Assembly (NCBI GenBank): GCA_938003985.1
Contig: CALKWZ010000073.1
Coordinates: 6,295 to 70,294, forward strand
DNA: 64,000 bases
Direction: 5' to 3'
DNA from: an uncultured Verrucomicrobiota bacterium
Lineage (GTDB): Bacteria > Verrucomicrobiota > Kiritimatiellia > CAIQIC01 > Lenti-01
In this document: positions 2,089-40,011 of the stretch, in pieces
How the letters are laid out: each line of letters opens with the position of its first letter
Position numbering within the stretch: position 1 is the first letter of the stretch
The notes under the pieces: model-generated
What the model was told of the DNA's origin: nothing
What the model saw: only the letters and a program-made list of their open reading frames with translations
Database searches by the model: none
Translations under genes and position numbers: made by a program

Positions 2089-3828
2089 ATGAACCCACCC
2101 TCTTTCGCCCCCGTCCCCGCCGCGCGCCTCGAGGAATACTCCTCCGCCTGCACGCTCTCGGACATGGAAATCTTCGTTTTTCCGTCCCTGCTCTATCCCC
2201 TCGTCCTCGCCAACCTGATGTCGCCCGCCATCTGGAAATGGCGCGACGACCCGTGGTTCGCCAACTTCGCCAAGCTCACGCCGTACCGCCGCATCTTGCG
2301 TCTGAAGCAGTACGTCATGGACCACTACGCCTTCAACCTCGACCTCGAGACCTGGGGCCTCACCACCCAGGAACGCGAGATGGCGCGCTTTTCCCCGTAC
2401 CTCGCGCCGGAGACCATCGCCCAAAGCAACGCCCTGTTCGGCTACGAAGGCGACAAGTTCTACTTCTCCCTCGACATCCGCCGGCACTTCGGCCTGGACA
2501 AGTACACCCGCGACGTCATCCCGTACTGGAAGACCGAAACCGTCGAAGCCATGGACGCCTTCCGCTACAAGCCCGGGCACCGGACCGGCGCCGGCGAATG
2601 CGTCTCCCTCTCCACCCTCTACGCCGCGGCGCTCTATATCCTCTGCGGCATTTCCCTCGACGACGTCTTTCTCGTCGCCACCCCGCTCCACTCCCAGAAC
2701 TTCGTCGACGTCCACGACGGCATCCTCACCAACAACCGCCGGCTCGTCACCAAGGCCATGTGGTTCAACGGCACCGAACTTTCCGCCAAGGCCCGGCGCG
2801 CGCTCGAACACGAGCAGGTGACCATCGTCGCCCACCGCACCGGCTGGGTCCACGCCGTCTATCCCGAGGCCTCCATCGACCACGCCGCCTACGAGCGCTT
2901 CCGGGCCAAGCTGGGCGCGTTCGTGCGCACGCCCGTCACCTCCGAAATCCTGTTCAATTTCCTGCGCCAGAATCCCGCGCGCCAGAAATGCTTCCAGATC
3001 GAACACGCCTGCTGCGGCAAGCGCCGCTGGATCCCCGCCGAACGCGCCTATGCCTTCGAGAACTCCTGTTCCTTCAAGGTCTCCGACCGCACCCGCGACA
3101 AGCTCCTCGCCGAAATGGACGAGGACGATTTTTTCGCCGAGCCCCTGCCCGACCGCATCCCCCTCAACAAGTTCGACGAATTCTTCAAGCAGGGCCAGGT
3201 CGATCTCGACAACGAAGAAGACCTCCAGCGCCTCGCGCGCGAAGTCGACTGCTACCACGCCGGCGCCTGCGAGATCATCAAGGAACTGCGCGCCTTCTGC
3301 CACCTCGAACCCCGCTGGCCCGACGCCGGCCAGCCGCGCCAATTCGTCCGCGGCCCCGCGATCGACCTGCCGCCCGGCCTGACCCGCGAAGAAATCATCG
3401 CGACCCTCGCAGCGCAGCGCGCCGCCAATCCCGTCGCCGATCTCGCGTTCTACGCTTTCCGCGATCTGGCCCGCACCGATCCGCGCCCGTTCCTCAAGGC
3501 CGCCATCGAACGCTCGCCCGTCTGCGTCGAAGCCGCCAAGACCATGGAACTGTCCATGATCCTCGCTTGCTTGCGCGAAATGGAAGACGAATCCATCTAC
3601 GACTCCACCCGCGCCGCGCAGCCCGACGAAGTCTGGAACGCCCACCGCGGCGACGGCTTCGAAAAAGCCCTCGTCCTCGCCGCCATCCTGCATGCCCGCG
3701 CCCCCGCCGCTTCCTTCACCCTCCGCGCCGCCGGCGAAACCGCCACCTTGGTCTTCGACGGCAAAGAATACCCCTTCGCCACCCGCAAAGGCCTGCAGCT
3801 CGACCTCGCCTGGCCCCTCGCCACTTGA
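2089..3828 (+). CDS. Transglutaminase-like (Cys-His-Asp core) domain protein, hypothetical
   Basis: Start MNPPSF at 2089. The core GAGECVSLSTLYAAALYILCGISLDDVFLVATPLHSQNFVDVHDG matches the transglutaminase-like cysteine protease arrangement C...H...D. It is divergent from the ArnT-like gene. Confidence 0.55.
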   Translation: MNPPSFAPVPAARLEEYSSACTLSDMEIFVFPSLLYPLVLANLMSPAIWKWRDDPWFANFAKLTPYRRILRLKQYVMDHYAFNLDLETWGLTTQEREMARFSPYLAPETIAQSNALFGYEGDKFYFSLDIRRHFGLDKYTRDVIPYWKTETVEAMDAFRYKPGHRTGAGECVSLSTLYAAALYILCGISLDDVFLVATPLHSQNFVDVHDGILTNNRRLVTKAMWFNGTELSAKARRALEHEQVTIVAHRTGWVHAVYPEASIDHAAYERFRAKLGAFVRTPVTSEILFNFLRQNPARQKCFQIEHACCGKRRWIPAERAYAFENSCSFKVSDRTRDKLLAEMDEDDFFAEPLPDRIPLNKFDEFFKQGQVDLDNEEDLQRLAREVDCYHAGACEIIKELRAFCHLEPRWPDAGQPRQFVRGPAIDLPPGLTREEIIATLAAQRAANPVADLAFYAFRDLARTDPRPFLKAAIERSPVCVEAAKTMELSMILACLREMEDESIYDSTRAAQPDEVWNAHRGDGFEKALVLAAILHARAPAASFTLRAAGETATLVFDGKEYPFATRKGLQLDLAWPLAT

Positions 3829-4400
3829 TCAGTTGAAAATCCCCTTTTTTGCCCGCCCAAGCCCGTTTGCGAGGCATTTTTTTTGGCGATTTATTGCCTC
3901 CGCAGGCCTCTCCGGACCCGCCAAGCGCCTGCCCAGCCCTAAAAACCCCCGATTAAGCAGGAAAACAGGAAACACACAGGAAAACAGGATCAAGCCCCCA
4001 TCCCTTCCTGTTTTCCTTCTAAAATTCCCCGTTTTCACGGGTTTAGGCCGATTTTCGGCCGTTTTCGTGGTTTGTGGCCCGTTTGGGACCTGTTTCGGGC
4101 CCGTTGCGAGCCATTTTCGGCCCTGAAAACGCCCTCCGCGGTCATTTTCGTCCGAAAAATGCCTCCCGAGAGCCTCCTTTTGCGAAGGAGGCATTGCGCG
4201 GCGCCCCGAAACCGGCATAAAGCCTCCTTCGCGCTCGGTTCACGCCCGCCCGCCCGCGCCCTATTCCCCAAGCCCGCAGCCCGTTGCGCCATTGACCCAC
4301 CCCCGCCTTTCCGCTATCCTTTTGCCACTCAGGAAGATTCACCCCGCCACGTAAAACCTCCTTGAAGGAGGGTGAATAAAACGGTTCTGCAAAAGGAAAT
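3829..4400. promoter_or_regulatory. Long repeat-rich noncoding leader (570 bp) upstream of the low-GC cassette
   Basis: No credible ORF. Direct repeats CAGGAAAACAGGA occur at 3958-3970 and 3977-3989. At least six (A/G)TTTTCG(G/T) motifs flanked by CC/GG lie between 4029 and 4153. Perfect 8-bp hairpin GCCTCCTT-ttgcg-AAGGAGGC at 4172-4192 and a 5-bp hairpin CCTCC-ttgaa-GGAGG at 4357-4371. Half-site CCACGTAAAA at 4347-4356. SD AAGGA lies 6 nt before the ATG at 4401. Confidence 0.4.
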
Positions 4401-4787
4401 ATGAAAAGCAACTTAATGATAGCACTCGGCGTAGTCGTTGTATTATCGCTTATGGGAGCAACGGTATTTATTGGTCTGCAATCCATGAGCGCTGCACATG
4501 CGGACATCCCCCCGCCGACAGTTAAGACCATTTCCGATTTTCGCTCCTGGCGCCCTACTTTTACCACTGCGCATCTCATTACTTTCGGCTGGTCTAGCAA
4601 CTACTACATTGACAATGACAATGCGCGATACAGCTCACGCGGGCCGCGCACATATGTTTTTAGTACATCGGGAAAATATCTTGAGACGTCGGACCTTACG
4701 GCCGATATGCGCAGCTTTGCATTTGCCGCCAGCAAAGGCGTAAACATTACTAGGGTTAATATTGACGATATACCAATACCGGAATGA
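4401..4787 (+). CDS. Hypothetical small secreted protein (low-GC islet, ORF-A)
   Basis: 128 aa with signal peptide MKSNLMIALGVVVVLSLMGATVFIGLQSMSAAHA and SD AAGGA upstream. Local GC is about 45% against about 70% background. No recognisable family. Confidence 0.55.
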   Translation: MKSNLMIALGVVVVLSLMGATVFIGLQSMSAAHADIPPPTVKTISDFRSWRPTFTTAHLITFGWSSNYYIDNDNARYSSRGPRTYVFSTSGKYLETSDLTADMRSFAFAASKGVNITRVNIDDIPIPE

Positions 4788-4798
4788 ATAATGCGCAG

Positions 4799-4862
4799 AA
4801 CAAGCGGGTCCAGGGTACCCGCCACAAGGTGTCGGATCCCCTGACCCGTGACGTTCGACGAA
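4799..4862 (+). repeat. 64-bp direct repeat, copy 1 (about 94% identical to 5491-5554)
   Basis: aacaagcgggtccagggtacccgccacaaggtgtcggatcccctgacccgtgacgttcgacgaa, located at the ORF-A/ORF-B junction. Imperfect internal dyad (cgggtccagggtaccc / ggatcccctgacccg). Confidence 0.85.
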
Positions 4863-4866
4863 TAAA

Positions 4867-5553
4867 ATGATTATGCGCACAATGGCACATCACCGATACG
4901 CGGCCATCATAGCTGGTGCATGCAACGCTATTATCGCCACTTCCGCCATGTCCGACGACATTCCTTGGATTACGCTTGAGAACATCAGCCTGAATCCAAC
5001 CAGCTTTTATGTGTCCATCAATGTAACCAATACCTGGTCACCATATTATTTCGCCCTGGAGGCATACGAAGGAGAACCTGTGGGGTCCACCGGCGGGGTT
5101 GAGCGAGCCATCGTATCCGATTGGGTGCAAGGAACGGGCTCGGCCTTGGTCTTGTATGACACCTCTGCCCCCTTGTCTCAATCAGGGCGTACATACAATG
5201 TCGCGGTCACTCCGGATATCGGAGGATTCTACATCCTTGGTCCAAACGAAATCTTTGCCCCTTATCCCTTCTTCAGATCGCCCGACATTTCTTCGATCAT
5301 CGTAACGCCAACAAATGCGGGCCAAGTCTTGGCCATCACATATGGCGAGGGCTTGTATACCAATACGGTCTATGTCTTGAGTGACGAAGCCTCGGGGTTC
5401 ATTCGAGTCAAGGGAACCAACAATATCCCGACAAATGCGGTCATCGAGCGCAGCACGGATCCCATTAGATGGGCCACAAAAAAAATGTCGAACAAGCGGG
5501 TCCAGGGTACCCTCCACAAGGTGTCGGGTCCCCTGACCCGTGACGTGCGATGA
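4867..5553 (+). CDS. Hypothetical secreted protein (low-GC islet, ORF-B); C-terminal 20 aa encoded by repeat copy 2
   Basis: 228 aa with signal-like N-terminus MIMRTMAHHRYAAIIAGACNAIIATSAMS and a beta-rich body. GC about 48%. Tail ...NKRVQGTLHKVSGPLTRDVR. The stop overlaps the next start as ATGA. Confidence 0.55.
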   Translation: MIMRTMAHHRYAAIIAGACNAIIATSAMSDDIPWITLENISLNPTSFYVSINVTNTWSPYYFALEAYEGEPVGSTGGVERAIVSDWVQGTGSALVLYDTSAPLSQSGRTYNVAVTPDIGGFYILGPNEIFAPYPFFRSPDISSIIVTPTNAGQVLAITYGEGLYTNTVYVLSDEASGFIRVKGTNNIPTNAVIERSTDPIRWATKKMSNKRVQGTLHKVSGPLTRDVR

Positions 5554-5554
5554 A
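5491..5554 (+). repeat. 64-bp direct repeat, copy 2
   Basis: aacaagcgggtccagggtaccctccacaaggtgtcgggtcccctgacccgtgacgtgcgatgaa has 4 mismatches to copy 1 and spans the ORF-B end and the ORF-C start. Confidence 0.85.
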
Positions 5555-5972
5555 GAACGACCGGAAACTGCTGCGAAAGGTTGGCGCGCTGGCCATCCTG
5601 CTGGGCGTTTATCCGGCGTTTGTTCTCGGCTACTCGTGGAGTTGCGTGCTGCGGTCGGATTTGCGCGGCGGCCGGCATGGCCCGCTCGATGCCTATCGCC
5701 ATGCTCTCGCCAGCGCGGTGGTGGCGTACACGTTGAACGAGTCGGCGGTTGACCTCATCACTGTCCTGTTTGAATCGAAGGGCAAGGACTCCAATCGCAT
5801 GGACGGCCACAACAACCGCATCGGGGCCCGCCTCGGCGCCCACGCCGATTCATTCCGCGACCTTGAACCCGCCGTGCGGCAACATGTTGGGAACGGCGCC
5901 GTCGCTGCGGTCGAACCGGATCAAATCACCTGGTTGCCGGAGAACAAATGGCGCGATGGTTGGATTTGGTGA
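5550..5972 (+). CDS. Hypothetical membrane-anchored protein (ORF-C)
   Basis: 140 aa with N-terminal TM (VGALAILLGVYPAFVLGY). The ATG is embedded in repeat copy 2. GC is intermediate (about 62%). No recognisable family. Confidence 0.45.
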   Translation: MKNDRKLLRKVGALAILLGVYPAFVLGYSWSCVLRSDLRGGRHGPLDAYRHALASAVVAYTLNESAVDLITVLFESKGKDSNRMDGHNNRIGARLGAHADSFRDLEPAVRQHVGNGAVAAVEPDQITWLPENKWRDGWIW

Positions 5973-6005
5973 CCGGTCCATGAAAATGCCATTCCCATAA
6001 TCGCC

Positions 6006-6389
6006 ATGCTCCGCCTCTACGTAGATCAGATCGCGCGGTTGTTTCCGGACGCTTCGAAGGCGGAGCTGCGGTTGCTGCTGGCGGCGCGGCGGGCGATTCT
6101 GAAGGCCGTTCCGGCCTGCCACGAGCACGTCAAATGGGGCGCGCTCTCCTACCAGAAGCCGGACCCGGACGGCGCGATCAAAGGCGGCATCTGCCAGCTT
6201 TATCATTGGCGCGGCCAAGTCCTGGTGGGCTTCGTCCACGGCGCGTTTCTGCCCGATCCCGCGCGGCTGCTGCAAGGCACCGCCAAGGCCAAGCGCACGC
6301 TCCCCATCCCCGCCGCCGCCTTCCTGAAAGACCGGCGTTTTCTCGATCTGCTCCGCGCTTCCGCCCGGTTCGATCCCTGCAAGCCGTAA
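6006..6389 (+). CDS. DUF1801 (YdhG-like) domain protein
   Basis: 127 aa containing HEHVKWGALSY, typical of DUF1801. Confidence 0.65.
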   Translation: MLRLYVDQIARLFPDASKAELRLLLAARRAILKAVPACHEHVKWGALSYQKPDPDGAIKGGICQLYHWRGQVLVGFVHGAFLPDPARLLQGTAKAKRTLPIPAAAFLKDRRFLDLLRASARFDPCKP

Positions 6390-6461
6390 AGCGGCGGAAT
6401 ATCGAAATTGACCTCGAACCGGCGCGGAAATTGCGCTACGAATCCGCGGTGAGGAATCCCG

Positions 6462-7604
6462 ATGGCGTTGCGCGTGTTGATCGTACCGGACAAGTTCAAG
6501 GGGACGCTGGCGGCCCCGGCGGCCGCGGCGGCGATCGCCCGCGGCTGGAGCGAAGCGCGGCCGCAGGATGTTCTTGAACTCGTGCCCATGTCCGACGGCG
6601 GCGAGGGCTTCGGCGAATTGCTGGGGACGCGGCTCGGCGCCGCGAGGCGGACCTGCGCCACCGTGGATGCCGCGGGCCGGCCTTGCCGCGCGGAATGGTG
6701 GGCTGCACCGGAGGCCGGCACGGCGATCTTCGAGACTGCGCAGGTGAACGGTCTGGCCCGGCTGCCGCCCGGGCAATTCCACCCCTACCAGCTCGACACG
6801 TTCGGCATCGGCGCGGTGCTGCGCGACGTCGAACAGGCCGGTCTCCGCCGGTTGATCCTCGGCCTGGGCGGCAGCGCGACGAACGACGGCGGCTTCGGCC
6901 TGGCGCGGGCCTTGGGTTGGATTTTCCGCGACGGCGCCGGGGCGGAAATCCGGTCCTGGACCGAGCTGGACCGGTTGGCTGCGGCGGAACCCCCGCCGCG
7001 TCCGCTCGGTTTTGAGCAGATCGTCGTCGCGGTGGACGTCGCAAATCCCCTGCTCGGTCCCACGGGCGCGACGCGGGTCTATGGTCCGCAAAAGGGCCTG
7101 AAGCCGGAAGACCTGGACCGGGCCGAACGCTGCCTCGCCCGGCTGGCCGCAACGCTCAAGCCGCAACAGGGCCCCGCCGCCGAACAGGAACCGGGCGCGG
7201 GCGCCGCCGGCGGACTGGGCTACGGCTTGAAGGCTTTTGTCGGCGGCGCATTCCGGCCCGGCGCGGCCATCTTCGCGGAACTGGCGGGACTGGATGAAAA
7301 GATCCGGCAAGCGGATCTGGTGATCACCGGCGAAGGCGCGCTGGACGAGCAATCGCGGATGGGCAAAGGCACGGGATTCGTCGCGGATCTGGCCGCGCGC
7401 GCAGGCAAGCGCTGCCTGTGCCTGGCGGGGCGGATTTCGCCGTCGTTCCGCGTTCCCTCCCCCGACGGGGTCGTCGGGGGCGCCAAGGACTTCGCGGCGT
7501 GGGCCATCGTGCCCGACGTCGCGACGGAGACCGAATCGCGCGCGCACCCGGCGGAATGTTTGCGGCGCCTGGCGGCCCGCGCGGCGGCGCAAGTTGTTGG
7601 ATAA
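6462..7604 (+). CDS. glxK: Glycerate kinase
   Basis: MALRVLIVPDKFKGTL..., GGEGFG, GGSATNDGGFG and ITGEGALDEQS are conserved glycerate kinase motifs. Confidence 0.85.
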   Translation: MALRVLIVPDKFKGTLAAPAAAAAIARGWSEARPQDVLELVPMSDGGEGFGELLGTRLGAARRTCATVDAAGRPCRAEWWAAPEAGTAIFETAQVNGLARLPPGQFHPYQLDTFGIGAVLRDVEQAGLRRLILGLGGSATNDGGFGLARALGWIFRDGAGAEIRSWTELDRLAAAEPPPRPLGFEQIVVAVDVANPLLGPTGATRVYGPQKGLKPEDLDRAERCLARLAATLKPQQGPAAEQEPGAGAAGGLGYGLKAFVGGAFRPGAAIFAELAGLDEKIRQADLVITGEGALDEQSRMGKGTGFVADLAARAGKRCLCLAGRISPSFRVPSPDGVVGGAKDFAAWAIVPDVATETESRAHPAECLRRLAARAAAQVVG

Positions 7605-7644
7605 GCCCCCCCGCGGCCTTGGCCGTGGGAGGCGAAGTTGGCTC

Positions 7645-7667
7645 CCCCATGGCGCGAGGCCATGGGG
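7645..7667. terminator. GC-rich hairpin between convergent genes (possible bidirectional terminator)
   Basis: Perfect 9-bp stem CCCCATGGC-gcgag-GCCATGGGG lying between the glxK stop (7604) and the giant gene stop (7693). No T-tract. Confidence 0.45.
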
Positions 7668-7692
7668 CCCGCCCGAACGGCTTTGCCGCGGA

Positions 7693-10600
7693 TCAGGGCG
7701 CGCGCTGGACGCCGATGCCGTAGAAGTAGGTGCCGAGTTCGGCGGGGGCGGCGTTGGTGTAGCCGTTGGTCGGGGCGGTGGCGCCGATGTTGCCGACGTG
7801 CTGGGTGAAGGGCCCGGCGACGTTGGTCGCGCGCCAGATCGAATAGACGCGGCCGGTCACGCTGGGCCAGCGGAAAACCAGGTTCGCCGTCGCGGTCTGG
7901 TTGGTGGCGTAGGGCGCCAGCGCCAGCACGGACGAATTGGTTTTCGGATTCGTGCCGGCGATGAATTCGTCGTAGTTGCTCCGGCCGTCGCCATCGTCGT
8001 CGCCCGCGGGCACGCCGTTGGTCGCGCCGCTGAAATAGGTGCTTTCGTACACGTCCGGCATGCCGTCGCCGTCGCTGTCGGCGTCCGGATCGGTCTGCAC
8101 GCCCGTCACGATCACGTCGTCGAGCGCGATGTTGCTCGTCACCTTGTTCCAGGTGAACCGCAGCTGCGTCGCGGATTCGGACAGATCGAAGGCGTAGGTC
8201 GTACCGACGTTCGACGGGTTGGTGACCACGCCCACCGTCGCCCAGTTCCCGCCGACGTACTGCGCCACCTCGAAGGTGCCCGTCCCCGCCGTCGTGACCG
8301 CCCGCATCCAGAACGAGACGTTCGTCGCGCCGAAGAACGTCGGACTGGCGATGGCGTCGCCGTCGCTGTCGAATTTGACCGACGGCGCCGCCCGGCCGTA
8401 GTAGGTGGCGGGATAGTTCGTGGTGACGCCGCTGAACGTCCAGCCCGCGGGCACGGCGGGCGTGACGTCGAAGGGCTCGTCGATCAGCGTGACGGAATTC
8501 GTGTCCGGCTCGGCCACGTAGGTCGCGGCGAAGGAGTTGGTCGTGCCGTTGGTCGTGGCCGTCGCGACGTCGGCCGGCGCGATCCAGCCCGTCGCCGCGC
8601 CGAACGACACCGTGTGCGCGCCGGCGGTCAGGCCGGTGGCGGCGGCGCCGCTGGCGCGCCACGCGCCGCCGTCCACGCGCCATTGCGCGCCGGCGGCGAC
8701 GGCCTCGGCGGGCTGCAGCGTGACGGACAGGGCGCCGGTCGTGGGCGGCGCCGCCCCCGCCTGCCCCTTGAGCTGGATCTCGTCCAGGTAGTAGAAATCG
8801 TTGGTGTTGTTGGCGCTCGCCGCGTCGAAGAAGACCACGCGCGCCATGATCTGCGTGCGGACGTCGGCGATGGCCAGCACGTACGGGGTGCCCTGCGGCT
8901 GCCGGTTGGTGTCGACCAGCGTCCCGTACTCCAGCTGCAGGTTGCTCAGGCCGTCCGCGATCTGCGTGCCGATGGCCGACGGCGACCACGTCGCGCCGCC
9001 GTCGTAGCTGACGGACACGTGCAGGTCGTCGCCGCTGTCCGGTCCGTTGGCCGCGAACGGGATCGTCAGCGTCACGTTCGTATAGCCGCTGATGTCCACG
9101 TTGCCCAGGACCACCGCCGGATTGACCGCCCCGTTCGTGGACCCGCGCAGGCGCACCGCGCTTGCGCCGGACAGCACCTTGTCCGCGTTCGTCGCCGCGG
9201 CCGCGCCGAAATCTTCGTTGGTCGCCAGCCCGCTGCCGTTCAGGGGCACGTAGCTCCAGCTCCAGGGATGCACGTCCGCGCCGTCGAAACCCTGCGACGC
9301 GATGCAATCCGCGCCGGCGGGCTGCAGGACGTAGGTCCGCGTCACGGTGCCCGTCGCGCCGGAGACGACCGTCACGTTGGTCGCGGCGGGCGTAGCGTAG
9401 CCCGCAACGGGGCCGAAGGTCACGGTATAGCCACCGGCGGCCAGATTGGTCGTGGCGCCCGCGGCGATCCAGCTCGCGCCGCCGTCGAGGCTCCACTGCG
9501 CGCTCGCCGGCGTCAGGTTCACCGTCAGCGCCCCGGGCAGGTCGGCGTAGGTCTTCGTGAAGGACGCCGCCTCGCCCGCGGACAACGCGTAGTTGGTCGC
9601 CGCCGGCGCGGCATAGCCGCTCACCGCCAGGAAGCTGATCGTGTGCGTCTTGACGGTCAGATCCTGGACGGTGGCCCCGCTCTCGTTCCAGTTGGTGCCG
9701 CCGTCCACGCTCCACGCGGCCCCGGCGGCCACGGCGCCGGCAGGAGCCAGCGCGACCGTGATCGAGCCGGGCAGCGCCGTGTAGCTGTAGGACCGGACCA
9801 CGTTGCTGTTGGCGTAGACGGTCGTGTAGCCCGTATCCGGCACCACGTAATTCGAGACGGTCTTGAAGGTGAAATACTGGCGGCCGGCGAGCAGATCATA
9901 GGCCGTGGCGCCGCTGTCGTACCAGGTGTTGCCGCCATCCACGCTCCACTGCGCGCCCGCGGACACGGCCGCCGCCGGACTCAGGTTCACCGTCAGGTCG
10001 CCCACCAGCGCGACGTAGGCGCCCGTGATGGAAACCGCGGCGCCGGCGATGGTCACGTTGGACGCGGCGGGCGTCGTATGGCTGTCGACGTCCTGGAACG
10101 TCACCGCGTAGGTGCCGTTGGTCAGGTTGGAGAGCGTGGTGCCGCTCGTGCGCCAGACGGCGCCGCCGTCCACGCTCCAGCGGCCGTCGGCCACGGCCGT
10201 GGCCGGCGTCAGCGTCACGGTCAGCGAGCCGGAGGCCGAGGCATAGACGGAGGTGAAGACGTTGGTCGCGCCCGCGGTCACCACGACGGACGTCGCGGCC
10301 GGCGTGAGATACCCGTCCACGGCGCCGAAGGAAACCTGGTAGGTGCCCGCATTGAGGCCCGTGCGCACGCTGCCGCTGACGTTCGTGGTGCCGGCGACGA
10401 TCCACCGCCCCGCGTTCGTCGCGGCCGCCGGCGAGAGCACGACGCGGATGGCGCCGGGCACGGCCGAATCGCCGAGGAACTGCATGGCCTTGGTCATCAC
10501 GGTCGCGCGGGTTTCCGCGTTGGTGATGGTTTCGAACGGGAAGCCCATCACGACGGTGCGGTAGGTGGCGTTGCTGTACTGGACGATCGCGCCGCTGGTG

Positions 10601-13600
10601 CCCGCGGCGCTCGCGCCGTACACCGCGGCGGTGACGCCGCCGCTGCCGACGCGCAGCACGTCGGGATAGTTCGCCGCGTAGACCTGCGGCAGCAGGTTCG
10701 TGTAGTTGAAGGCGATGGAGACGCCGTTGAGGAAGCCGCCGGCCGTGCCCGTGACCTGGCCGGTGGCGCCGCTGTCGGCCGAATAGACCGCGCGCAGCAC
10801 GTTGGTGAAGAAATTCACGTCCGCGGCCGAGGACACCCCCGCCCGGCCCAAATCCCAGCCGATTTCCGCGCCGGAAACGAACAGCCGGCCGCCGGCGTTC
10901 AGGTAGGCCGTCGCGGCGGTCTGTTCGGCGGAGCCGAAGGTCTCGTCCACCGTGGATTCCTCGCCCAGGATCCAGACGACCTTGGCGTAGTTCGTCAGCA
11001 GCGCCGACGAGACGAGCGCGGCGCCGACGTAGTCGAAGGTCTGCCCCGCCGCCGCCAGCGCGAGGCCGTGTTCCTTGACGTAGTCGAAGTGGTTGATCAT
11101 CCGCGGCCGCACCAGCGTCACGTTGCCGTTGAGGCCGTTGGCGAAGTAGCGCGTCGGCGCCAGGCCCGCGTCGTTGCGCGTGAAGCCGTCCACGACGAGC
11201 ACGCCCGCCTTGGCGCCGCCGGAAGTCACGCGCACGCCGGCCACGGCGGAATCGAACGACTCGCCGCCGGCGTTCGTCGCGCAGACCTTGAAGAAGATCG
11301 TCGCGCCCGCGTTCAGGTTGGTGACCACCTTGTTCGTGGCGCTCGCGCCGGAGACCGGGATGGGATTGCCGAAACCCTGGCCGTCCGTGGAGGTATAGAG
11401 GACGAAGCCCTGCGGCAAGCCGCCGCTGGCGGCGTCGCGCGCGGGCATGGCCCACGACACCGTGACCTGGCCGCTGCCGGAATTGACCGCCTTGAGGTCC
11501 GTCGGCCGATCGGGCGCGTTGGTGTTGACGATGCCGCTGGCGTAGTAGCCGGCCAGGTGCTTGATCAGGCCGCGCGCGGTCGCGCGCGCCAGCCATTCGC
11601 GGCCGGCGGGCAGCTTCAGCACCGCGCAGTCGTTGGAGTTGTCGTGGAACGCCACTTCGTTGATCGTGGTGTCCATCTTGAGGAACACGCTGGAATTGTA
11701 GATTTCGCCGTAGGTGCTGCCGTAGAGATAGCCGGTGCGCGTGCTCCAGCTGGGGATCACGCTGTTCGTGCCGGCGCGCAGGTCGACGTTGCACTGGCGG
11801 GCCAGCGCGGCGGCGAGGTTGGTCTGCGCGGCGTAAAGGGACGGATAGCCGGACTGGATGCGCGTGTCGTAGAGGCCGATGGCGCCGCGGCCGGTGCCGT
11901 CGCCGGCGTTGGAGTGGAAGCCCACGTAGACCCGCTGCCAGCGCGCCGCGTCGTTGGAGCGGCACATGTAGGCCGCCATGCGCGCGGGCTGGCCGATGTT
12001 GTCGCTGCGGTCGTCGTAGCCGGCCAGGTCGTAGAGCGTGGCGTCCATCCCCTGCCCCATGGACTTGATGGTCCAGAAGCGGCCGGATTCTAGTTCCGAT
12101 TCGAAGCCCGAGATCCCGGCCGTGCCGCGCGCGACGTTGCCGCGCCCGTTGCCGAAGCGGATGGCGTCGGCGAAGACGGACGAGCCCTCGGCGCCGCCGG
12201 GCGCGTAGTTGCCGATGTTCACGCAGCCGTTGGTGCCGGCTTCGAAGTGGTAGTTGCCCAGCCAGACCCAGCCGCAGCCGACGTCGCGGTGGTTCACGCG
12301 CACGTCCGTCACGCCGCCGGAATGGTACACGCGGTACAGCTGGTTGGCGCGGTCGGAACCGTGGCGGACCCAGGTGTAGACCGGATATTCGCCGGCTTCG
12401 GGCAGATTCGGCCGGTAGGAGGCCCACGACGTCGAGCCGTTGGTGCTGATCGCGGCGTAGCGGTACGGCACGGCGTCGCCGGCGTTGCCGTAATAGATGG
12501 ATTGCGTCGAGTTGTACCACGTGCCGCCGAAGGTGACCTTGCCGCGGGCCGTCTGGTTGGTGTCCATGTTGTCGAGCACCACTTCGTTCGTCTGGTAGCC
12601 CAGCGGCCGGATCGGGACGACCGTGCCGCCGGCCTTCCAAACCGCTTCCGCGAACCGGTTCATCTGGTCGACGTTGCCCATGTCCTCGTTCACGGCGAAC
12701 AGCAGCGGGCGTTCGGGGATCCACGCGGTCAAGGCCTCGTTCGCGCCGAAGCCGTGGCCGGCGCTGGTGTAGACCACCACGCCGGACAACGGACCGGTCG
12801 GCTGGGCCGCCGCGACCTGCGGCAGGCCGGTTTCGTCCGGCGTGCCCAGCGGTTCTTCGCCGCCGCCGGTTTCGCCTTCGCCCCCGCCCGTCTCGCCGCC
12901 GCCTTCTTCCGCCGCGGCGCCCATCGTGCCTTTGGTCAGGATCGTGCCGTTGTAGCCGACGGCCACGAACTGGTCTTCGGCATAGCTGATGCCGCGCAGG
13001 AGATTCGTCGTGCCGGAGGTTTCCGCCTCCCAGGTCAGGCCGTCGGTGGAACTCCAGATCGACCCGTTGGCGCCCGCCGCCTTGAACAGGCCCGAGCAGT
13101 AGGCCGAGCGGTAGAAATAGACGCTGTTGGTGGTGAAGCTCCAGGAAAGCCCGTCGGAGGAACGCAGGATCCGCTGGTTGCCCACGGACACGTAGTAGCC
13201 GTTGCCGTACGTCACGTCGGAAAGATACTGGGAGGTGCCGGACGTGCGCGGCGTCCAGCTCAGGCCGTTGCTCGACGTCAGGATCAGGCCGCTCTGGCCG
13301 ACGATGACGAAGAGCGGGGATTCCGCGGACGCTTCGTTCGTGTCGCCCGCGTTCACGAAGTCCATGCCGTAGCCCACGCCCTGCAGCGACGCGTTCGTGC
13401 CCGACGCCACCGCCGACCAGGTCGCGCCGTCGGTCGAGCGCACGATCGCGCCGCCGTCGCCGCAGGCCACGTACGTGCCGTTGCCGTAGGCCACGCCGCG
13501 GAACAGCGCGTTCGTCGGCGAGGTCCGCGACGTCCAGTCGAGGCCGTTGGTGGAGGTGACGATGGCGCCGCTTTCGCCGACGACCACCCACAGCGGGCCG

Positions 13601-15288
13601 TCGCCGTTCACGTTCATCAGCAGGCCGCTCTTGCCGCTGCTGCGGGCGGTCCAGTCGATGCCGTTGGTGGAGGTGTAGAGCGCCCCGCCGGCCCCGCTGG
13701 CCACGTGCAGGCCGGCGCGACTGCCCACGCCGTAGAAATTCGCCGTATGGGCGGACACGCGGTTCGTCCAGGGCGCGGTCGCCGAGGAACCGCCGGTCTC
13801 GCCGGGATCCGGATCGGGCGGCGGCGCCGCGCCCGCGCCGAACTTCTCGTCGATCAGCTGCCAGAGTTCCGTCTTGCCGGTGCCTTGCGTGAGGTTCCAG
13901 ATGCCGATGCCGCCCATCCCCTTCGTATTGGACAGGTCGTACTTCATCCCGAGGCTGGCGACGTCGTCGTAGAAGCACTGGTAGGCGGTGCTGTTGGAGA
14001 CGTAGACGTAGTACGGCACGCTGCCGTTGTTGTCCCATTTCTTGCCGTACTTGGCGGCTTCCGATTCGCAGGCGCCGTAGGTCAGCGCGGCGGAATAGGC
14101 GCTGCCGAGGCTGGCGGCGCCGAGGTTCGTGCTGGCGGCGGCCCAGCGGCGCCCGTAGTACGGCACGCCCAGCATCAGTTTGTTCGTCGCGATGCCCTTC
14201 CCCAAATAGTAGTTCATGGAGTAGTTCACCGAGCACCACGAGCTGGCGCCGATCCACTGCGCGCTGCTGGTCAGCGGCGCCACCGGGCCCGGCGTGCCGC
14301 TGCCGGAATAGTAGTAGTCGTAGCCCATGACGATCGCGTAATCCATGCCGAAGGCGGCGTAGTTGGACACCGCGAAGTTCGCGTACCAATCCACCGACGG
14401 CAGCGCGATCGAGATCTCGTAGTTCGGATTCGCCGCGTGGAACCGCGTCGTCAGGTTGCTCATGAAGGTCGTCAGCGCCGCCGTCGCGCCCGTCCACGAG
14501 CCCACGCCTTCGAAATCGATGTTCACCCCGTCGCCGTCGCCGGGCAGCGTGCGGTTGGTCATCGCGATCAGCAGCTGGGTGATCAGGTTGCTGCACGCGA
14601 CGGAATTCGTCAGGAACCGGTGCGTGGCGGCGTCGCCGAACAGCGTCGCCGTCAGCACGACCTTCACGCCGTTGCTGTGCGCCCACTCCACCACGGGCGA
14701 CGTGCCCCACGAGCCCATGCTGTCGGCGTTGCCGTTGGTGGAATTCACCGCATAGGAGAAGTAGGCGATGGTCGTCAGGTTCGTGTACTGGTAGTTCTGG
14801 ATATCCGTCATCGTCGCCCAGGACGGATGCCAGCCCAGCACGCGCTTGCCCGCGGCGATGGCCTTGGGCGCCGCCAGCGGCTGGACGGTCGGCTTGGGCT
14901 GCCGGGACGGCTTGGCGGTCGGATCGAAATCGGTCGGCGTTTCGCCTTGGTGTTCCTCGAAGGCGATCTGGAGCGGGCTCTTCCAGTCGGCCAAATATTC
15001 CGGCACGACGAAGGCGGCCTGCTCGGCCTCCTCTTCCGTGGCGCCCATTTCAAGCGCGGTCGCTTTCGCCAGGCTGCGCGCGCGCGCCACGGCGGGCGAC
15101 GTTTCGGCGACGTCCGGAATTTCCGGCAGAGCCACGTCCACGCCCGTTTCGTCCCAGGCATCTTGCCCCGCCACCTGGTTTTCGGTACCGGCCGGGACCG
15201 GTTCGTCCAGACCTTCCGCCCGCCCGCCGGCCAGCGTTAGACAAAAGAACAGCCCGCCCAATACGCCCACGTGAATGCGCCGATTCAT
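7693..15288 (-). CDS. Giant secreted multidomain protein (2531 aa) with GH18 chitinase-like domain
   Basis: Start MNRRIHVGVLGGLFFCLTLAGGRAEG (signal peptide) at 15288..15286. Domains in order: GH18-like (DGVNIDFEG); BNR/Ycf48-like beta-propeller (STNGLDWTSRTS, SSDGLSWSF, STDGLTWEAETSG); Amidase_3-like (VVVYTSAGHGFGANEA ... GFHSNAG ... AFHDNS); FN3; ThuA/GATase1-like; about eight Ig-like repeats (G..TV.LSPA.A..GA.WSVDGG..W); choice-of-anchor-like module; TSP3 Ca-binding repeats (DPDADSDGDGMPD, GDDDGDGRSNYDE); conserved C-terminal tail. The upstream in-frame extension to 15471 was rejected. Confidence 0.85.
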   Translation of the reverse strand: MNRRIHVGVLGGLFFCLTLAGGRAEGLDEPVPAGTENQVAGQDAWDETGVDVALPEIPDVAETSPAVARARSLAKATALEMGATEEEAEQAAFVVPEYLADWKSPLQIAFEEHQGETPTDFDPTAKPSRQPKPTVQPLAAPKAIAAGKRVLGWHPSWATMTDIQNYQYTNLTTIAYFSYAVNSTNGNADSMGSWGTSPVVEWAHSNGVKVVLTATLFGDAATHRFLTNSVACSNLITQLLIAMTNRTLPGDGDGVNIDFEGVGSWTGATAALTTFMSNLTTRFHAANPNYEISIALPSVDWYANFAVSNYAAFGMDYAIVMGYDYYYSGSGTPGPVAPLTSSAQWIGASSWCSVNYSMNYYLGKGIATNKLMLGVPYYGRRWAAASTNLGAASLGSAYSAALTYGACESEAAKYGKKWDNNGSVPYYVYVSNSTAYQCFYDDVASLGMKYDLSNTKGMGGIGIWNLTQGTGKTELWQLIDEKFGAGAAPPPDPDPGETGGSSATAPWTNRVSAHTANFYGVGSRAGLHVASGAGGALYTSTNGIDWTARSSGKSGLLMNVNGDGPLWVVVGESGAIVTSTNGLDWTSRTSPTNALFRGVAYGNGTYVACGDGGAIVRSTDGATWSAVASGTNASLQGVGYGMDFVNAGDTNEASAESPLFVIVGQSGLILTSSNGLSWTPRTSGTSQYLSDVTYGNGYYVSVGNQRILRSSDGLSWSFTTNSVYFYRSAYCSGLFKAAGANGSIWSSTDGLTWEAETSGTTNLLRGISYAEDQFVAVGYNGTILTKGTMGAAAEEGGGETGGGEGETGGGEEPLGTPDETGLPQVAAAQPTGPLSGVVVYTSAGHGFGANEALTAWIPERPLLFAVNEDMGNVDQMNRFAEAVWKAGGTVVPIRPLGYQTNEVVLDNMDTNQTARGKVTFGGTWYNSTQSIYYGNAGDAVPYRYAAISTNGSTSWASYRPNLPEAGEYPVYTWVRHGSDRANQLYRVYHSGGVTDVRVNHRDVGCGWVWLGNYHFEAGTNGCVNIGNYAPGGAEGSSVFADAIRFGNGRGNVARGTAGISGFESELESGRFWTIKSMGQGMDATLYDLAGYDDRSDNIGQPARMAAYMCRSNDAARWQRVYVGFHSNAGDGTGRGAIGLYDTRIQSGYPSLYAAQTNLAAALARQCNVDLRAGTNSVIPSWSTRTGYLYGSTYGEIYNSSVFLKMDTTINEVAFHDNSNDCAVLKLPAGREWLARATARGLIKHLAGYYASGIVNTNAPDRPTDLKAVNSGSGQVTVSWAMPARDAASGGLPQGFVLYTSTDGQGFGNPIPVSGASATNKVVTNLNAGATIFFKVCATNAGGESFDSAVAGVRVTSGGAKAGVLVVDGFTRNDAGLAPTRYFANGLNGNVTLVRPRMINHFDYVKEHGLALAAAGQTFDYVGAALVSSALLTNYAKVVWILGEESTVDETFGSAEQTAATAYLNAGGRLFVSGAEIGWDLGRAGVSSAADVNFFTNVLRAVYSADSGATGQVTGTAGGFLNGVSIAFNYTNLLPQVYAANYPDVLRVGSGGVTAAVYGASAAGTSGAIVQYSNATYRTVVMGFPFETITNAETRATVMTKAMQFLGDSAVPGAIRVVLSPAAATNAGRWIVAGTTNVSGSVRTGLNAGTYQVSFGAVDGYLTPAATSVVVTAGATNVFTSVYASASGSLTVTLTPATAVADGRWSVDGGAVWRTSGTTLSNLTNGTYAVTFQDVDSHTTPAASNVTIAGAAVSITGAYVALVGDLTVNLSPAAAVSAGAQWSVDGGNTWYDSGATAYDLLAGRQYFTFKTVSNYVVPDTGYTTVYANSNVVRSYSYTALPGSITVALAPAGAVAAGAAWSVDGGTNWNESGATVQDLTVKTHTISFLAVSGYAAPAATNYALSAGEAASFTKTYADLPGALTVNLTPASAQWSLDGGASWIAAGATTNLAAGGYTVTFGPVAGYATPAATNVTVVSGATGTVTRTYVLQPAGADCIASQGFDGADVHPWSWSYVPLNGSGLATNEDFGAAAATNADKVLSGASAVRLRGSTNGAVNPAVVLGNVDISGYTNVTLTIPFAANGPDSGDDLHVSVSYDGGATWSPSAIGTQIADGLSNLQLEYGTLVDTNRQPQGTPYVLAIADVRTQIMARVVFFDAASANNTNDFYYLDEIQLKGQAGAAPPTTGALSVTLQPAEAVAAGAQWRVDGGAWRASGAAATGLTAGAHTVSFGAATGWIAPADVATATTNGTTNSFAATYVAEPDTNSVTLIDEPFDVTPAVPAGWTFSGVTTNYPATYYGRAAPSVKFDSDGDAIASPTFFGATNVSFWMRAVTTAGTGTFEVAQYVGGNWATVGVVTNPSNVGTTYAFDLSESATQLRFTWNKVTSNIALDDVIVTGVQTDPDADSDGDGMPDVYESTYFSGATNGVPAGDDDGDGRSNYDEFIAGTNPKTNSSVLALAPYATNQTATANLVFRWPSVTGRVYSIWRATNVAGPFTQHVGNIGATAPTNGYTNAAPAELGTYFYGIGVQRAP

Positions 15289-15506
15289 AGTAACGAGAAT
15301 CGTCACAAAGCCCGGTTGCGGCGTCAAGCGCGGGGTGTCCTGAAATCGACATTTGGTTTTTGTTAAATCTGGGCCAGAAGCCCATTTTATGTTTGCCAAC
15401 CGGCGGCGTGCAGAGCGAGGATTTCCCGCGTGATGGCGGCACGCCAGGTCGGGATCGGGTTTCCCGGCCATTCACGGCGAGCCGGCATTGCCCTAACGGA
15501 GGTCGC
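15289..15506. promoter_or_regulatory. Divergent intergenic control region between the two giant genes
   Basis: 218-bp AT-richer spacer (tttggtttttgttaaatctgggcc...). GGAGG SD lies 6 nt before the ATG at 15507. A weak sigma54-like GGCACG-N4-GTCG element was not pursued. Confidence 0.3.
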
Positions 15507-22216: not shown

Positions 22217-23056
22217 ATGCAGATCCGACTGACCTCCGGTACCGTTTTCCTCCTCGCCGCGCTCTTCGCCGCCGGCGCCGCCGCCCAGCAACGCATCGAA
22301 TTCCAGCGCCAGAAATTCGACCGTTCCCGGTTCGAGCGGGCCGGACAATCCGCCGAGCCGGCACCGGCGCCCGCCGCGCCGGCCGCCGAACCCGTCGGCA
22401 CGTGGCCCCCGCCGGTTGCCGCCGGGACTCCGGCCCCCATGGCCACGGAAACGCCCGCCCCGGCGCCGACGTCCGAATTCGGAACCCCGGCGCCGGCATC
22501 CGAGTTCGGCGCCCCGGCCGCGCCGGCCGCCGGCGCCGCTCCCGGCGGCGCGTTCCCAGCCGGCCCGCCGCCGTCCTATCCCGCCGGCGCCACGCCCGAG
22601 GAACGGGCCGCCATCGACGCGCCGCTGTTCGACCAAGTGCCCAGCAAATGGTTCAACAACGCCAAGGACTACCCCGAACTGCGCGAACTGCAGAAAAAAA
22701 CCGGCGCCTGCATGCTCGTCTATTTCAAGAATCCGTCCGTGCCCAACGAAAAGGGCCTGTGCAGCTGGTTCGAGAAAAGCATCACCACCGACATCGACTG
22801 GCGCAAGGCGATGAAGTACTTCATCAAACTGGAGATCACCCTGCCCGGGCCTTCCGCGGTGCGGGATTTGGTCGACCAGTTCCGGGTGATGCGCACGCCG
22901 TCCATCTTCGTGGTCAAACCCGGCGAGACGATGCCGTTTCGCCTGATGGTGTTCGAGTATCCCGAAGGCGGCGGCCGGCCCAAGCCCGTCGAAGTGCCGG
23001 TCGTGCTCGAGGCGCTCAAGGGGCGCTGCACGCCGGCCTACCAGACGCTCTTCTAG
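22217..23056 (+). CDS. Hypothetical secreted protein, Pro/Ala-rich linker plus thioredoxin-like C-terminal region
   Basis: Signal peptide MQIRLTSGTVFLLAALFAAGAAAQ with AGGA SD. PAPAPAAPAAEP low-complexity linker. C-terminal about 140 aa is globular. Confidence 0.6.
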   Translation: MQIRLTSGTVFLLAALFAAGAAAQQRIEFQRQKFDRSRFERAGQSAEPAPAPAAPAAEPVGTWPPPVAAGTPAPMATETPAPAPTSEFGTPAPASEFGAPAAPAAGAAPGGAFPAGPPPSYPAGATPEERAAIDAPLFDQVPSKWFNNAKDYPELRELQKKTGACMLVYFKNPSVPNEKGLCSWFEKSITTDIDWRKAMKYFIKLEITLPGPSAVRDLVDQFRVMRTPSIFVVKPGETMPFRLMVFEYPEGGGRPKPVEVPVVLEALKGRCTPAYQTLF

Positions 23057-23061
23057 GCCGC

Positions 23062-24027
23062 ATGGGCGGCGCCGTCCAGTTCCGGGCCATCGCCCGCCTC
23101 GCCGCGCTCGAGGCCATCCGCCGGCCCGTCTTCCTGCTCGTCAGCCTGTCCGTGCTCGTCGGCATCGTCGCGCTGCCGCTGCTGCTCAACTACACCCTGG
23201 GCGATTCCGCCCGCATGGTACGCGACAGCGCCCTCGCGCTCTATTTCGCCGGCGGCCTGCTGCTGGCCGCCCATGCCGCCGGCGAGGCGCTTGCGCGCGA
23301 ACTGCGCCGCGGCACCGCCGCCGCCGTGCTGGCCAAGCCCGTTTCGCGCGCCACGTTTTTCCTCGCCAAGACCGCCGGCGTCGCCGGCGCGCTGTTCCTG
23401 TATTCCCTCGCCGCCTGGGCCGCCGCGCTGCTGGCCGCGCGCGCCGGCGCCGACGACCTGCGGCTCGACTGGGCCGCCGAGGGCCCCGCGCTGCTGGCCG
23501 TGACGCTCGCGCCGGCCGTCGCCGGCGCCTGGAACCACCGCACCGGCCGGCCGTTCGCCTCCGCGGCGTTCTTCCTGCTGCTGGCGTTCCTGCTCGCCGC
23601 GCTGGCCGTCGCCGCGTTCTTCCCGACGCCCCTCGAACGCCTCGCGTTTCCGGCCAACTTCGCCTGGCCGCTGCTCGGCGTCGGCCTGCTGCTGTACTTC
23701 GCCCTCGGCATGGCCGTCGCGCTGGCCGCCGCGCTGGCCACGCGCCTGCCGGTCACGCCCGTGCTGCTGCTCTGCGCGGGGCTGTTCCTGTTCGGCCTGA
23801 TGGCCGACTACTTCCTCGGCCCGCACCTGGCCGATTCCTGCGCCGCGCGCGCCGCCTACGCCCTCCTGCCCAACGTCCAGGCCTTCTGGCTGCTCGACGC
23901 CCTCGACGGCGGCGCGCACGTCCCGGCCGACTACCTCGCCGCGGCCGCCGCCTACGCCGCCGCCTGGGCCGCCGCCGCCCTCGCCCTCGGCTGCGCGTCT
24001 TTCCGCCGCCTGGAGATCGCCGGATGA
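23062..24027 (+). CDS. ABC-2 type transporter permease
   Basis: 321 aa with six hydrophobic segments, directly upstream of an ABC ATPase gene. Confidence 0.7.
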   Translation: MGGAVQFRAIARLAALEAIRRPVFLLVSLSVLVGIVALPLLLNYTLGDSARMVRDSALALYFAGGLLLAAHAAGEALARELRRGTAAAVLAKPVSRATFFLAKTAGVAGALFLYSLAAWAAALLAARAGADDLRLDWAAEGPALLAVTLAPAVAGAWNHRTGRPFASAAFFLLLAFLLAALAVAAFFPTPLERLAFPANFAWPLLGVGLLLYFALGMAVALAAALATRLPVTPVLLLCAGLFLFGLMADYFLGPHLADSCAARAAYALLPNVQAFWLLDALDGGAHVPADYLAAAAAYAAAWAAAALALGCASFRRLEIAG

Positions 24028-24030
24028 GCC

Positions 24031-39937: not shown

Positions 39938-40011
39938 GCCCCGGTAGCTCAGTTGGACAGAGCGGCGGTTTCCTAAACCGTAGGTCGGAGGTTCGATCCC
40001 TCTCCGGGGTG
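39938..40011 (+). tRNA. tRNA-Arg (anticodon CCT)
   Basis: Cloverleaf folded by hand: acceptor GCCCCGG/CCGGGGT, D-arm GCTC/GAGC, anticodon stem GCGGT/ACCGT with loop TTCCTAA, T-arm GGAGG-TTCGATC-CCTCT. CCA is not encoded. Confidence 0.8.

Follow-up and report, generated by a model that had tools for sequence, protein, structure and literature searches.

Cury et al. (2016, PMC4889954) designate as CALIN a cluster of attC sites lacking an integron integrase. The attC sites themselves are 57-141 bp long, and their unpaired central spacer usually measures 5-6 nucleotides (nt) per arm; the bottom strand has its extrahelical bases on the L'' arm, namely a G inside L'' and, six bp beyond, a T (PMC5027507). 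The integron integrase IntI cuts at G|TT, and where cassettes follow one another in a linear array, each attC therefore ends with six bases that belong to the next cassette (PMC5027507). We analysed a stretch of 64,000 nt (hereafter the window) from an uncultured Verrucomicrobiota bacterium of the class Kiritimatiellia (contig CALKWZ010000073.1, assembly GCA_938003985.1), in which two small genes occupy an islet of low guanine-cytosine (GC) content at 4380-5560. This islet is very probably a CALIN, i.e. a short integron cassette array without neighbouring integron integrase in a Kiritimatiellia chromosome, each low-GC gene being a mobile cassette of its own that consists of a promoterless open reading frame (ORF) and a 65-nt attC site. 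It is an element of known kind in a little-studied class. Read in this way, an unexplained compositional anomaly acquires a defined mechanism, in which the boundaries, the orientation and the mode of gain and loss of the foreign genes are known.

The array shares with described CALINs at least two co-oriented attC sites, no nearby intI gene and no detected intI pseudogene, cassettes of unknown function with no resistance genes, and the occurrence of complete integrons in other genomes of the clade. It differs in opening with a conserved non-coding head, a feature not mentioned for CALINs in the passages of PMC4889954 consulted. Like the Vibrio cholerae superintegron, whose attC sites are known as VCR, it occupies a fixed chromosomal locus across species, has homogeneous attC sites (about 88-93% identity), carries small ORFs of unknown function and shows cassette turnover between relatives. 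In contrast to the superintegron, it has no adjacent intI, only two cassettes and a high-GC Kiritimatiellia host; at 65 nt its attC sites are short, their unpaired spacer measures 3/4 nt, and its cassettes lie about 16-18 GC points below the host. The logic is also that of class 1 integrons (intI1, attI1 and the cassette promoter, Pc), in which a promoter 5' of the GTT crossover drives promoterless cassettes, except that in the window the promoter is a candidate, there is no intI and the head has no sequence homology to attI1. The window junction AAAAC-N-G|TT may resemble that of attI1 (...CCCTAAAACAAAG|TTAGGC).

The GC content of 4380-5560 is 0.510, while the remaining 1181-nt segments of the 64 kb average 0.676 (standard deviation 0.025) and range from 0.603 to about 0.75, which places the islet at z = -6.7. 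At third codon positions the GC content (GC3) falls to 0.48 in ORF-A and 0.61 in ORF-B, against 0.84-0.95 in the other genes of the window. The low-GC islet of the original prediction is thus real, with atypical GC3 in both ORFs; the chromosome is at ~67% GC and not 70%. The fall in GC begins at the junction GTTCTGC (4384-4390, + strand). The window is 99.99% identical to contig DAINOP010000033.1 (GCA_036743915.1). Among the stretches of contigs from metagenomes or metagenome-assembled genomes (MAGs) that we compared (L001-L038, of which L027 and L036 belong to one contig and L004 is an NCBI-derived contig), the left junction of the islet recurs in L001-L004, four assemblies independent of one another, and the right one in both L004 and L005. 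Because its junctions recur in several independent metagenome assemblies, the islet is not the product of a chimeric assembly. It is flanked by a conserved core gene (579 aa) and a DUF1801 gene. As had been noted from the sequence, no integrase or transposase adjoins it, nor is there one anywhere in the 64 kb. Signs of an integrase- or transposase-borne genomic island were likewise lacking, as the 64 kb hold no recombinase and their sole tRNA, at 39938, is 34 kb away.

A direct repeat is present in exactly two copies (4798-4865 and 5490-5557; 68 nt as aligned, 93% identical). Extended outward by a few bases, each copy spans 65 nt and reads xxxxAAC-AAG-[stem]-TGAC-GTTxxxx, with the parts of an attC site: the R box (AAC/GTT), a short spacer that stays unpaired, the L box, in which a bulged G is invariant, and a terminal stem-loop. 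Its length falls within the 57-141 bp range. The repeats had been correctly seen in the original prediction, which missed their attC identity, and hence the presence of two separate cassettes and the acquisition mechanism. All attC scores given here come from a covariance model built from 18 copies of the repeat. The first site, attC1 (4795-4859, + strand; R'' GCAGAAC at 4795-4801, R' GTTCGAC at 4853-4859), scores 85.7 bits. The second, attC2 (5487-5551, + strand; R'' GTCGAAC at 5487-5493, R' GTGCGAT at 5545-5551), scores 89.4 bits and is the final attC of the array in the window strain. The two lie 692 nt apart on the same strand. The bottom strand folds better than the top one (-19.2 versus -14.8 kcal/mol for attC1, -17.3 versus -15.7 kcal/mol for attC2), with z-scores of -2.9 to -4.2 for the bottom-strand folds of the repeats. 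The bulged G is predicted on the 3' (L'') arm of the bottom strand, and the matching C19 of the top strand is invariant.

Given the IntI cut at G|TT and the complementarity of R' and R'' across units, the islet resolves into cassette 1 (4385-4853, + strand, 469 nt, ~49% GC), which holds ORF-A and attC1, and cassette 2 (4854-5545, + strand, 692 nt, ~52% GC), which holds ORF-B and attC2. The left crossover lies after G4384. Cassette 1 opens with the hexamer TTCTGC, whose reverse complement, GCAGAA, occurs unchanged in the R'' of attC1. TTCGAC, at the start of cassette 2, is in the same way the reverse complement of GTCGAA in the R'' of attC2. Indeed, the R' of attC1 (GTTCGAC) complements exactly the R'' of attC2 (GTCGAAC) and not its own R'' (GCAGAAC). 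Cassette starts that complement the R'' of their own attC are the footprint of IntI crossover at G|TT. With its filters off, the model found nothing above 7.5 bits as a third attC in 3000-8000 of the window. ORF-C, which follows attC2, and the DUF1801 gene are therefore not recognisable cassettes.

We then asked where else this repeat occurs. An exact-pattern scan for its core in one genome per GTDB species yielded 20 loci, all in Kiritimatiellia or 'Verrucomicrobiota' MAGs; many lie at contig ends, as expected because they are repeats. With the covariance model, many of these 20 loci show co-oriented arrays of three to eight sites, 150-2500 nt apart. The hairpin is well conserved: over 53 sites, 94.9% of the cells are paired, compared with 28-44% when partners are slid, compensatory changes affect 13 of the 20 hairpin pairs, and none of 500 shuffles reaches the observed values. 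Perfect 4/4 complementarity between the R' of one site and the R'' of the next was found in 23 of 43 consecutive pairs (14 loci), as against 2.9% of random pairs and 2 of 43 for the two ends of the same site. Most failing pairs are more than 1 kb apart, where a divergent site was probably missed between them. Of the 57 sites tabulated, R'' ends with AAC in 50 and R' starts with GTT in 47. The boundary rule is kept by both window cassettes, by cassette 3 of L001 and by the first cassettes of L013, L020, L036 and L009. The GC content of the array is below that of its flanks in seven of the nine other MAG loci compared, clearly so in L009, L016 and L022. A very homogeneous attC family, together with its integrases, is thus documented in Kiritimatiellia; the literature searched contained no paper joining integron attC analysis with this class.

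Two of the loci encode integron integrases, L013 (TIGR02249, 462.9 bits) and L020 (389.9 bits), with scores above the NCBIfam cutoff of 265. They were located by tblastn with an IntI1 query, which served as a lead only, and the full-length homologues were then confirmed by NCBIfam. In both cases intI is divergent from an array of the same attC family (sites of 87-92 bits), i.e. the canonical integron layout. A partial intI was found in L008 and a fragmented one in L022. G|TT is the point at which cassettes of the window attC family are cut and joined, and related genomes carry such cassettes together with integron integrases. In the window itself, two co-oriented attC sites are present and no intI exists in the 64 kb, and the array is therefore a CALIN and not a complete integron as defined by Cury et al. 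(2016); a complete integron would have an intI within a few kb of the array, where none was found.

Several observations weigh against this assignment. Searches of the 64-kb window by tblastn with IntI1 and with the IntI of L013 and L020 returned no intI or intI pseudogene (best E = 3.4), and the ten integrase-sized ORFs of the window have other Pfam domains or none. The R' of attC2 starts with GTG instead of GTT, one base off; this would be due to a mutation, or would represent the right half that the insertion site had originally. The unpaired spacer, with 3 nt (AAG) on one side and 4 nt (TGAC) on the other, is asymmetric and below the usual 5-6 nt. Only one base, the G, is predicted to be clearly extrahelical: four bp away, where a second base is unpaired, there is a 1x1 G/A mismatch and no bulged T. 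One homologue of ORF-B, in L035, has no detectable attC. Finally, the attI and promoter roles that we propose below for the head draw on conservation and a consensus match only.

The locus was compared between strains and species. Over window 3955-5546, L001, which comes from a different metagenome, shows 99.5% identity; it diverges right after the crossover G of attC2. Beyond this point it contains two further cassettes, which start exactly at the crossover and each keep the boundary rule. The first of them encodes a lipoprotein-like ORF, and its attC start CTCCAAC matches its own start GTTGGAG. The fourth cassette of L001 (L001:2128-2484) encodes a protein with a NucS_C domain, assigned to the PADLOC candidate defence family PDC-S11 (96.9 bits). 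The 579-aa gene located 5' of the array belongs to the conserved core genes of Kiritimatiellia. Among the syntenic relatives the closest is L037 (88% nucleotide identity), which has the same neighbours as the window: leucyl-tRNA synthetase, cupin, RRM protein, glycosyltransferase, 579-aa gene, DUF1801, glycerate kinase and GH18 giant. It contains no attC, ORF-A, ORF-B or ORF-C, and the window segment without counterpart in L037 extends from about 4225 to 6003. L036 (84%) has the same head as the window followed by at least 7 different cassettes, and no array was found in another syntenic relative, L038. The content of the window locus thus differs between strains and species by whole cassettes. 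It is an old array site with rapid cassette turnover, and one lineage no longer has the array. The comparison in relatives, proposed originally as a check on presence or absence of the islet, shows it to be variable: none in L037, other cassettes in L036, extra ones in L001. The view that the islet is horizontally acquired, dispensable cargo is borne out, as it is missing from syntenic L037 and its content differs between near-identical strains (L001). In L037 we also observed an IS110-family transposase gene (Transposase_20, L037:12930-14057) inserted between the DUF1801 and glycerate kinase genes.

The first cassette of the window is preceded by a non-coding leader (3829-4384, + strand), which starts after the 579-aa core gene. 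Its 3' part, the array head (4143-4384, + strand), is ~80% identical to the head of L027/L036; identity stops at the GTT junction, where GTTCTGC is shared. This head is a candidate attI site and cassette promoter. It contains a candidate Pc at 4292-4320 (+ strand), a sigma-70-like TTGACC-N17-TATCCT identified by its match to the consensus, and a hairpin CCTCC-TTGAA-GGAGG at 4357-4371 (+ strand), just 5' of AATAAAACG|GTT. A more diverged copy of the head lies 5' of the L009 array, downstream of unrelated housekeeping genes, and no IntI is encoded near this array, either in the 5.3 kb upstream or in the rest of the 8-kb stretch. The candidate promoter is kept in all three heads, and the stem of the hairpin is kept by different sequences in L036 (4/5 pairs) and in L009 (GCCGAC...GTCGGC). 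The three heads have in common TTGAC(C/A)-N17-TAT(C/T)CT, GCCACTCA, the hairpin and AATAAAAC-N-GTT; the head motif can be written TTGACN-N17-TATYCT-N3-GCCACTCA...AATAAAACNGTT. The conserved head (promoter-hairpin-AATAAAAC|GTT), which recurs before three integrase-less arrays that are independent of one another and lie in two or more gene contexts, may be the only new point of this work.

The position of the head, and the first cassette differing between the orthologous window and L036 loci, suggest that it plays the role of attI. No similarity was detected between the window head and the heads beside IntI in L013 and L020. It is conceivable, if doubtful, that the head is a functional orphan attI-Pc platform and that Kiritimatiellia arrays at fixed loci without integrase of their own are 'satellite' platforms, served in trans by an IntI encoded elsewhere, and not decayed integrons. 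The recurrence of the head before three arrays, and the exchange at its junction implied by the differing first cassettes, speak for this. If the head is a working attI-Pc module, it bears on how CALINs arise and whether they are active. Two other origins of the leader were considered. A degraded intI was ruled out, since the leader shows no tblastn similarity and is too short. That it is merely local intergenic DNA is weakened by L009, which has the same head in another gene context. A metagenome scan with a 19-mer of the leader returned only the L027 contig again and two unrelated loci. The 5' part of the leader (about 3950-4225), with repeats of CCTGTTTTCC type, is probably unrelated to the array, because it is also present in the cassette-less L037. 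At 3950-4140, direct and inverted CAGGAAAACAGGA / TCCTGTTTTCC repeats accompany several small hairpins with T-runs (e.g. GGCCGATTTTCGGCC at 4046-4060); similar repeats are kept in L036 and L037 and have no Rfam match. A second type of head (TTTCCCCGGSAAATG...CTATWGRAC|GTT) was observed before two other integrase-less arrays, at L011:~5160-5229 and L031:~6640-6710; the heads beside IntI in L013 and L020 differ from this type as well.

In the mechanism that we propose, an IntI encoded elsewhere in the genome, or formerly in the lineage, would insert cassettes at the GTT that ends the leader head. The head would act as an attI-like site, and the array would be transcribed from the TTGACC-N17-TATCCT promoter that it contains. 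We infer that cassettes can still be mobile at the window locus today. The array could instead be an inert relic, left over from a complete integron that has since lost its intI or had it moved away; no IntI would then act at present, and strains would differ through homologous, not site-specific, recombination of attC sites and heads that are ~90% identical. The lack of intI in 64 kb, the GTG of the last attC, the loss of the ORF-B stop with read-through into attC2, and the loss of the whole array and of part of the head in L037 all fit this picture, as does the statement in PMC4889954 that most CALINs have no intI pseudogenes nearby. However, L001 is 99.5% identical and yet differs by whole cassettes that start exactly at the crossover G and keep the boundary rule. 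Furthermore, the window and L036 do not have the same first cassette at this orthologous locus, which requires an exchange at the head junction, and the clade also has complete integrons whose attC sites are of this family. We regard the relic as possible but unlikely.

The repeats might also be transcription terminators or intergenic hairpins of the repetitive extragenic palindromic (REP) kind, the low-GC genes having arrived by a phage, an integrative and conjugative element or transformation. They are GC-rich hairpins located directly 3' of the ORFs, and no recombinase adjoins them. However, the hairpins are not followed by a T-run, no terminator is predicted there, and neither their conserved AAC...GTT flanks nor the complementarity between cassettes would have a meaning for a terminator. 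The repeats are associated with TIGR02249 integrases and strain differences fall exactly at G|TT. They also have no Rfam match: at gathering thresholds over the whole window, and by E-value over 3780-5600, Rfam gave only the tRNA at 39938 and chance-level matches. We consider this explanation highly improbable. Still less credible is that the repeat is conserved at the protein level, as a C-terminal peptide common to the cassette proteins that would serve in sorting or processing. The repeat does code for the final 24 residues of ORF-B, and the same tail follows many ORFs in tblastn, but ORF-A stops 8 nt before the repeat, ORFs enter it in different frames (KRVQGTLHKVSGPLTRDVR, SRVPVTRCRVP, GPGYPPQGVGSPDP), most ORF-B homologues end before it and its substitutions are compensatory for base pairing.

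A probable insertion was observed in attC sites of two MAGs, L016 (1-60) and L025 (3530-3832, - strand). In both, the R'' side of an attC has given way, from the same position, to a foreign sequence (...GGGGCTTTAGAGGAGATTCAAT) that does not differ between the two. Next to it, L025 has the beginning of an ORF that weakly matches DEDD_Tnp_IS110 (E = 0.002), below the Pfam cutoff since only 59 aa lie on the contig. This looks like an insertion sequence of IS1111-attC type that targets attC sites. An IS1111-attC group of IS110-family insertion sequences was reportedly described by Tetu and Holmes in 2008; the replacement of the R'' side in L016 and L025 is a point in common with it, whereas the window has no such insertion.

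The CALIN of the window carries two genes of unrelated sequence. ORF-A (4401-4787, + strand, 128 aa) comprises an N-terminal hydrophobic helix, a possible A-H-A cleavage motif and a small alpha/beta domain, and ORF-B (4867-5553, + strand, 228 aa) an N-terminal hydrophobic helix and two beta-sandwich domains. Neither belongs to a recognisable family, as had been stated originally: no match was found in Pfam, NCBIfam or PADLOC. We found 9 homologues of ORF-A (64-99% identity) and 45 of ORF-B (41-100%), all unnamed and from Kiritimatiellia where the organism is named; the alternative that these ORFs are spurious, raised with the prediction itself, is thus not borne out. Alignments of the homologues show conserved cores and conserved hydrophobic N-termini. 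AlphaFold places the hydrophobic helix at residues 2-33 of ORF-A and 3-24 of ORF-B. The two models are of moderate confidence, their values in the predicted local distance difference test (pLDDT) being 70.8 and 71.8. The beta-sandwich domains of the ORF-B model match only generic Ig-like folds in the PDB, and the ORF-A model has no structural match. Both would be exported, surface or membrane-anchored proteins. The original suggestion of a toxin, effector or adhesion factor found no support. In the gene calls listed for L004, ORF-A is missing and ORF-B starts at Met28 (201 aa). This public call starts too late, since the hydrophobic N-terminus is conserved among ORF-B homologues.

Most ORF-B homologues end with ...DPITWTSE. 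The window copy has lost that stop and its 24 last codons run into attC2; some other homologues read into attC in other frames. In L031, homologues of ORF-A and ORF-B are found in one large array, ~4 kb apart and in reverse order, while L033 and L035 have an ORF-B homologue and no ORF-A homologue in the stretch examined. A functional link between ORF-A and ORF-B is thus not supported, given the distance and opposite order in L031. The ORF-B homologue of L031 is followed by an attC of another subtype. This second sub-family was seen at L031:7200-7268 and 8615-8690 (…AACAAKGG.TTCCTGGCTATCGGCGCCAA…CTGAC|G..), on either side of the ORF-B homologue, with the same style of R and L boxes and a different terminal stem.

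ORF-C (5550-5972, + strand, 140 aa; GC3 0.75) lies directly 3' of attC2, its ATG overlapping the ORF-B stop, and no attC follows it. It has a weak Pfam match to DUF6973 (28.1 bits for a cutoff of 27). The suggestion that it might be a partner or immunity gene found no support, as no DUF6973 gene neighbours ORF-B homologues in three other contexts (L031, L033 and L035). ORF-C is part of the variable segment (about 4225-6003), since it is absent from L037, and is not a recognisable cassette. The cargo of the cassettes appears to be drawn from a lower-GC cassette pool common to Kiritimatiellia. Compared with several of the hosts, this pool has a GC content lower by 10-20 points, and it contains candidate defence genes (PDC-S11/NucS-like, GmrSD with methylase) and many exported proteins. 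A long cassette of L036 (15779-18309), with an EcoRI_methylase-like gene and a GmrSD_N gene, looks like a defence-like cassette of two genes.

Other features of the window were recorded. A gene on the - strand (7693-15471) encodes a secreted protein of 2592 aa with a GH18 chitinase-like domain (Pfam, at the identical locus in L004). The long antisense ORF that overlaps it is spurious, as is typical where GC content is high. Between the glycerate kinase gene and this giant gene, a segment of 72 nt (7607-7678) has an 84%-identical inverted copy ~9.4 kb upstream, outside the window (L004:1682-1753). Finally, the GC content peaks at 0.76 in 23000-24030, with a strong excess of T over A; this region corresponds to the ORF of an Ala/Leu-rich multi-pass membrane protein just 5' of an ABC ATPase gene, and looks ordinary.

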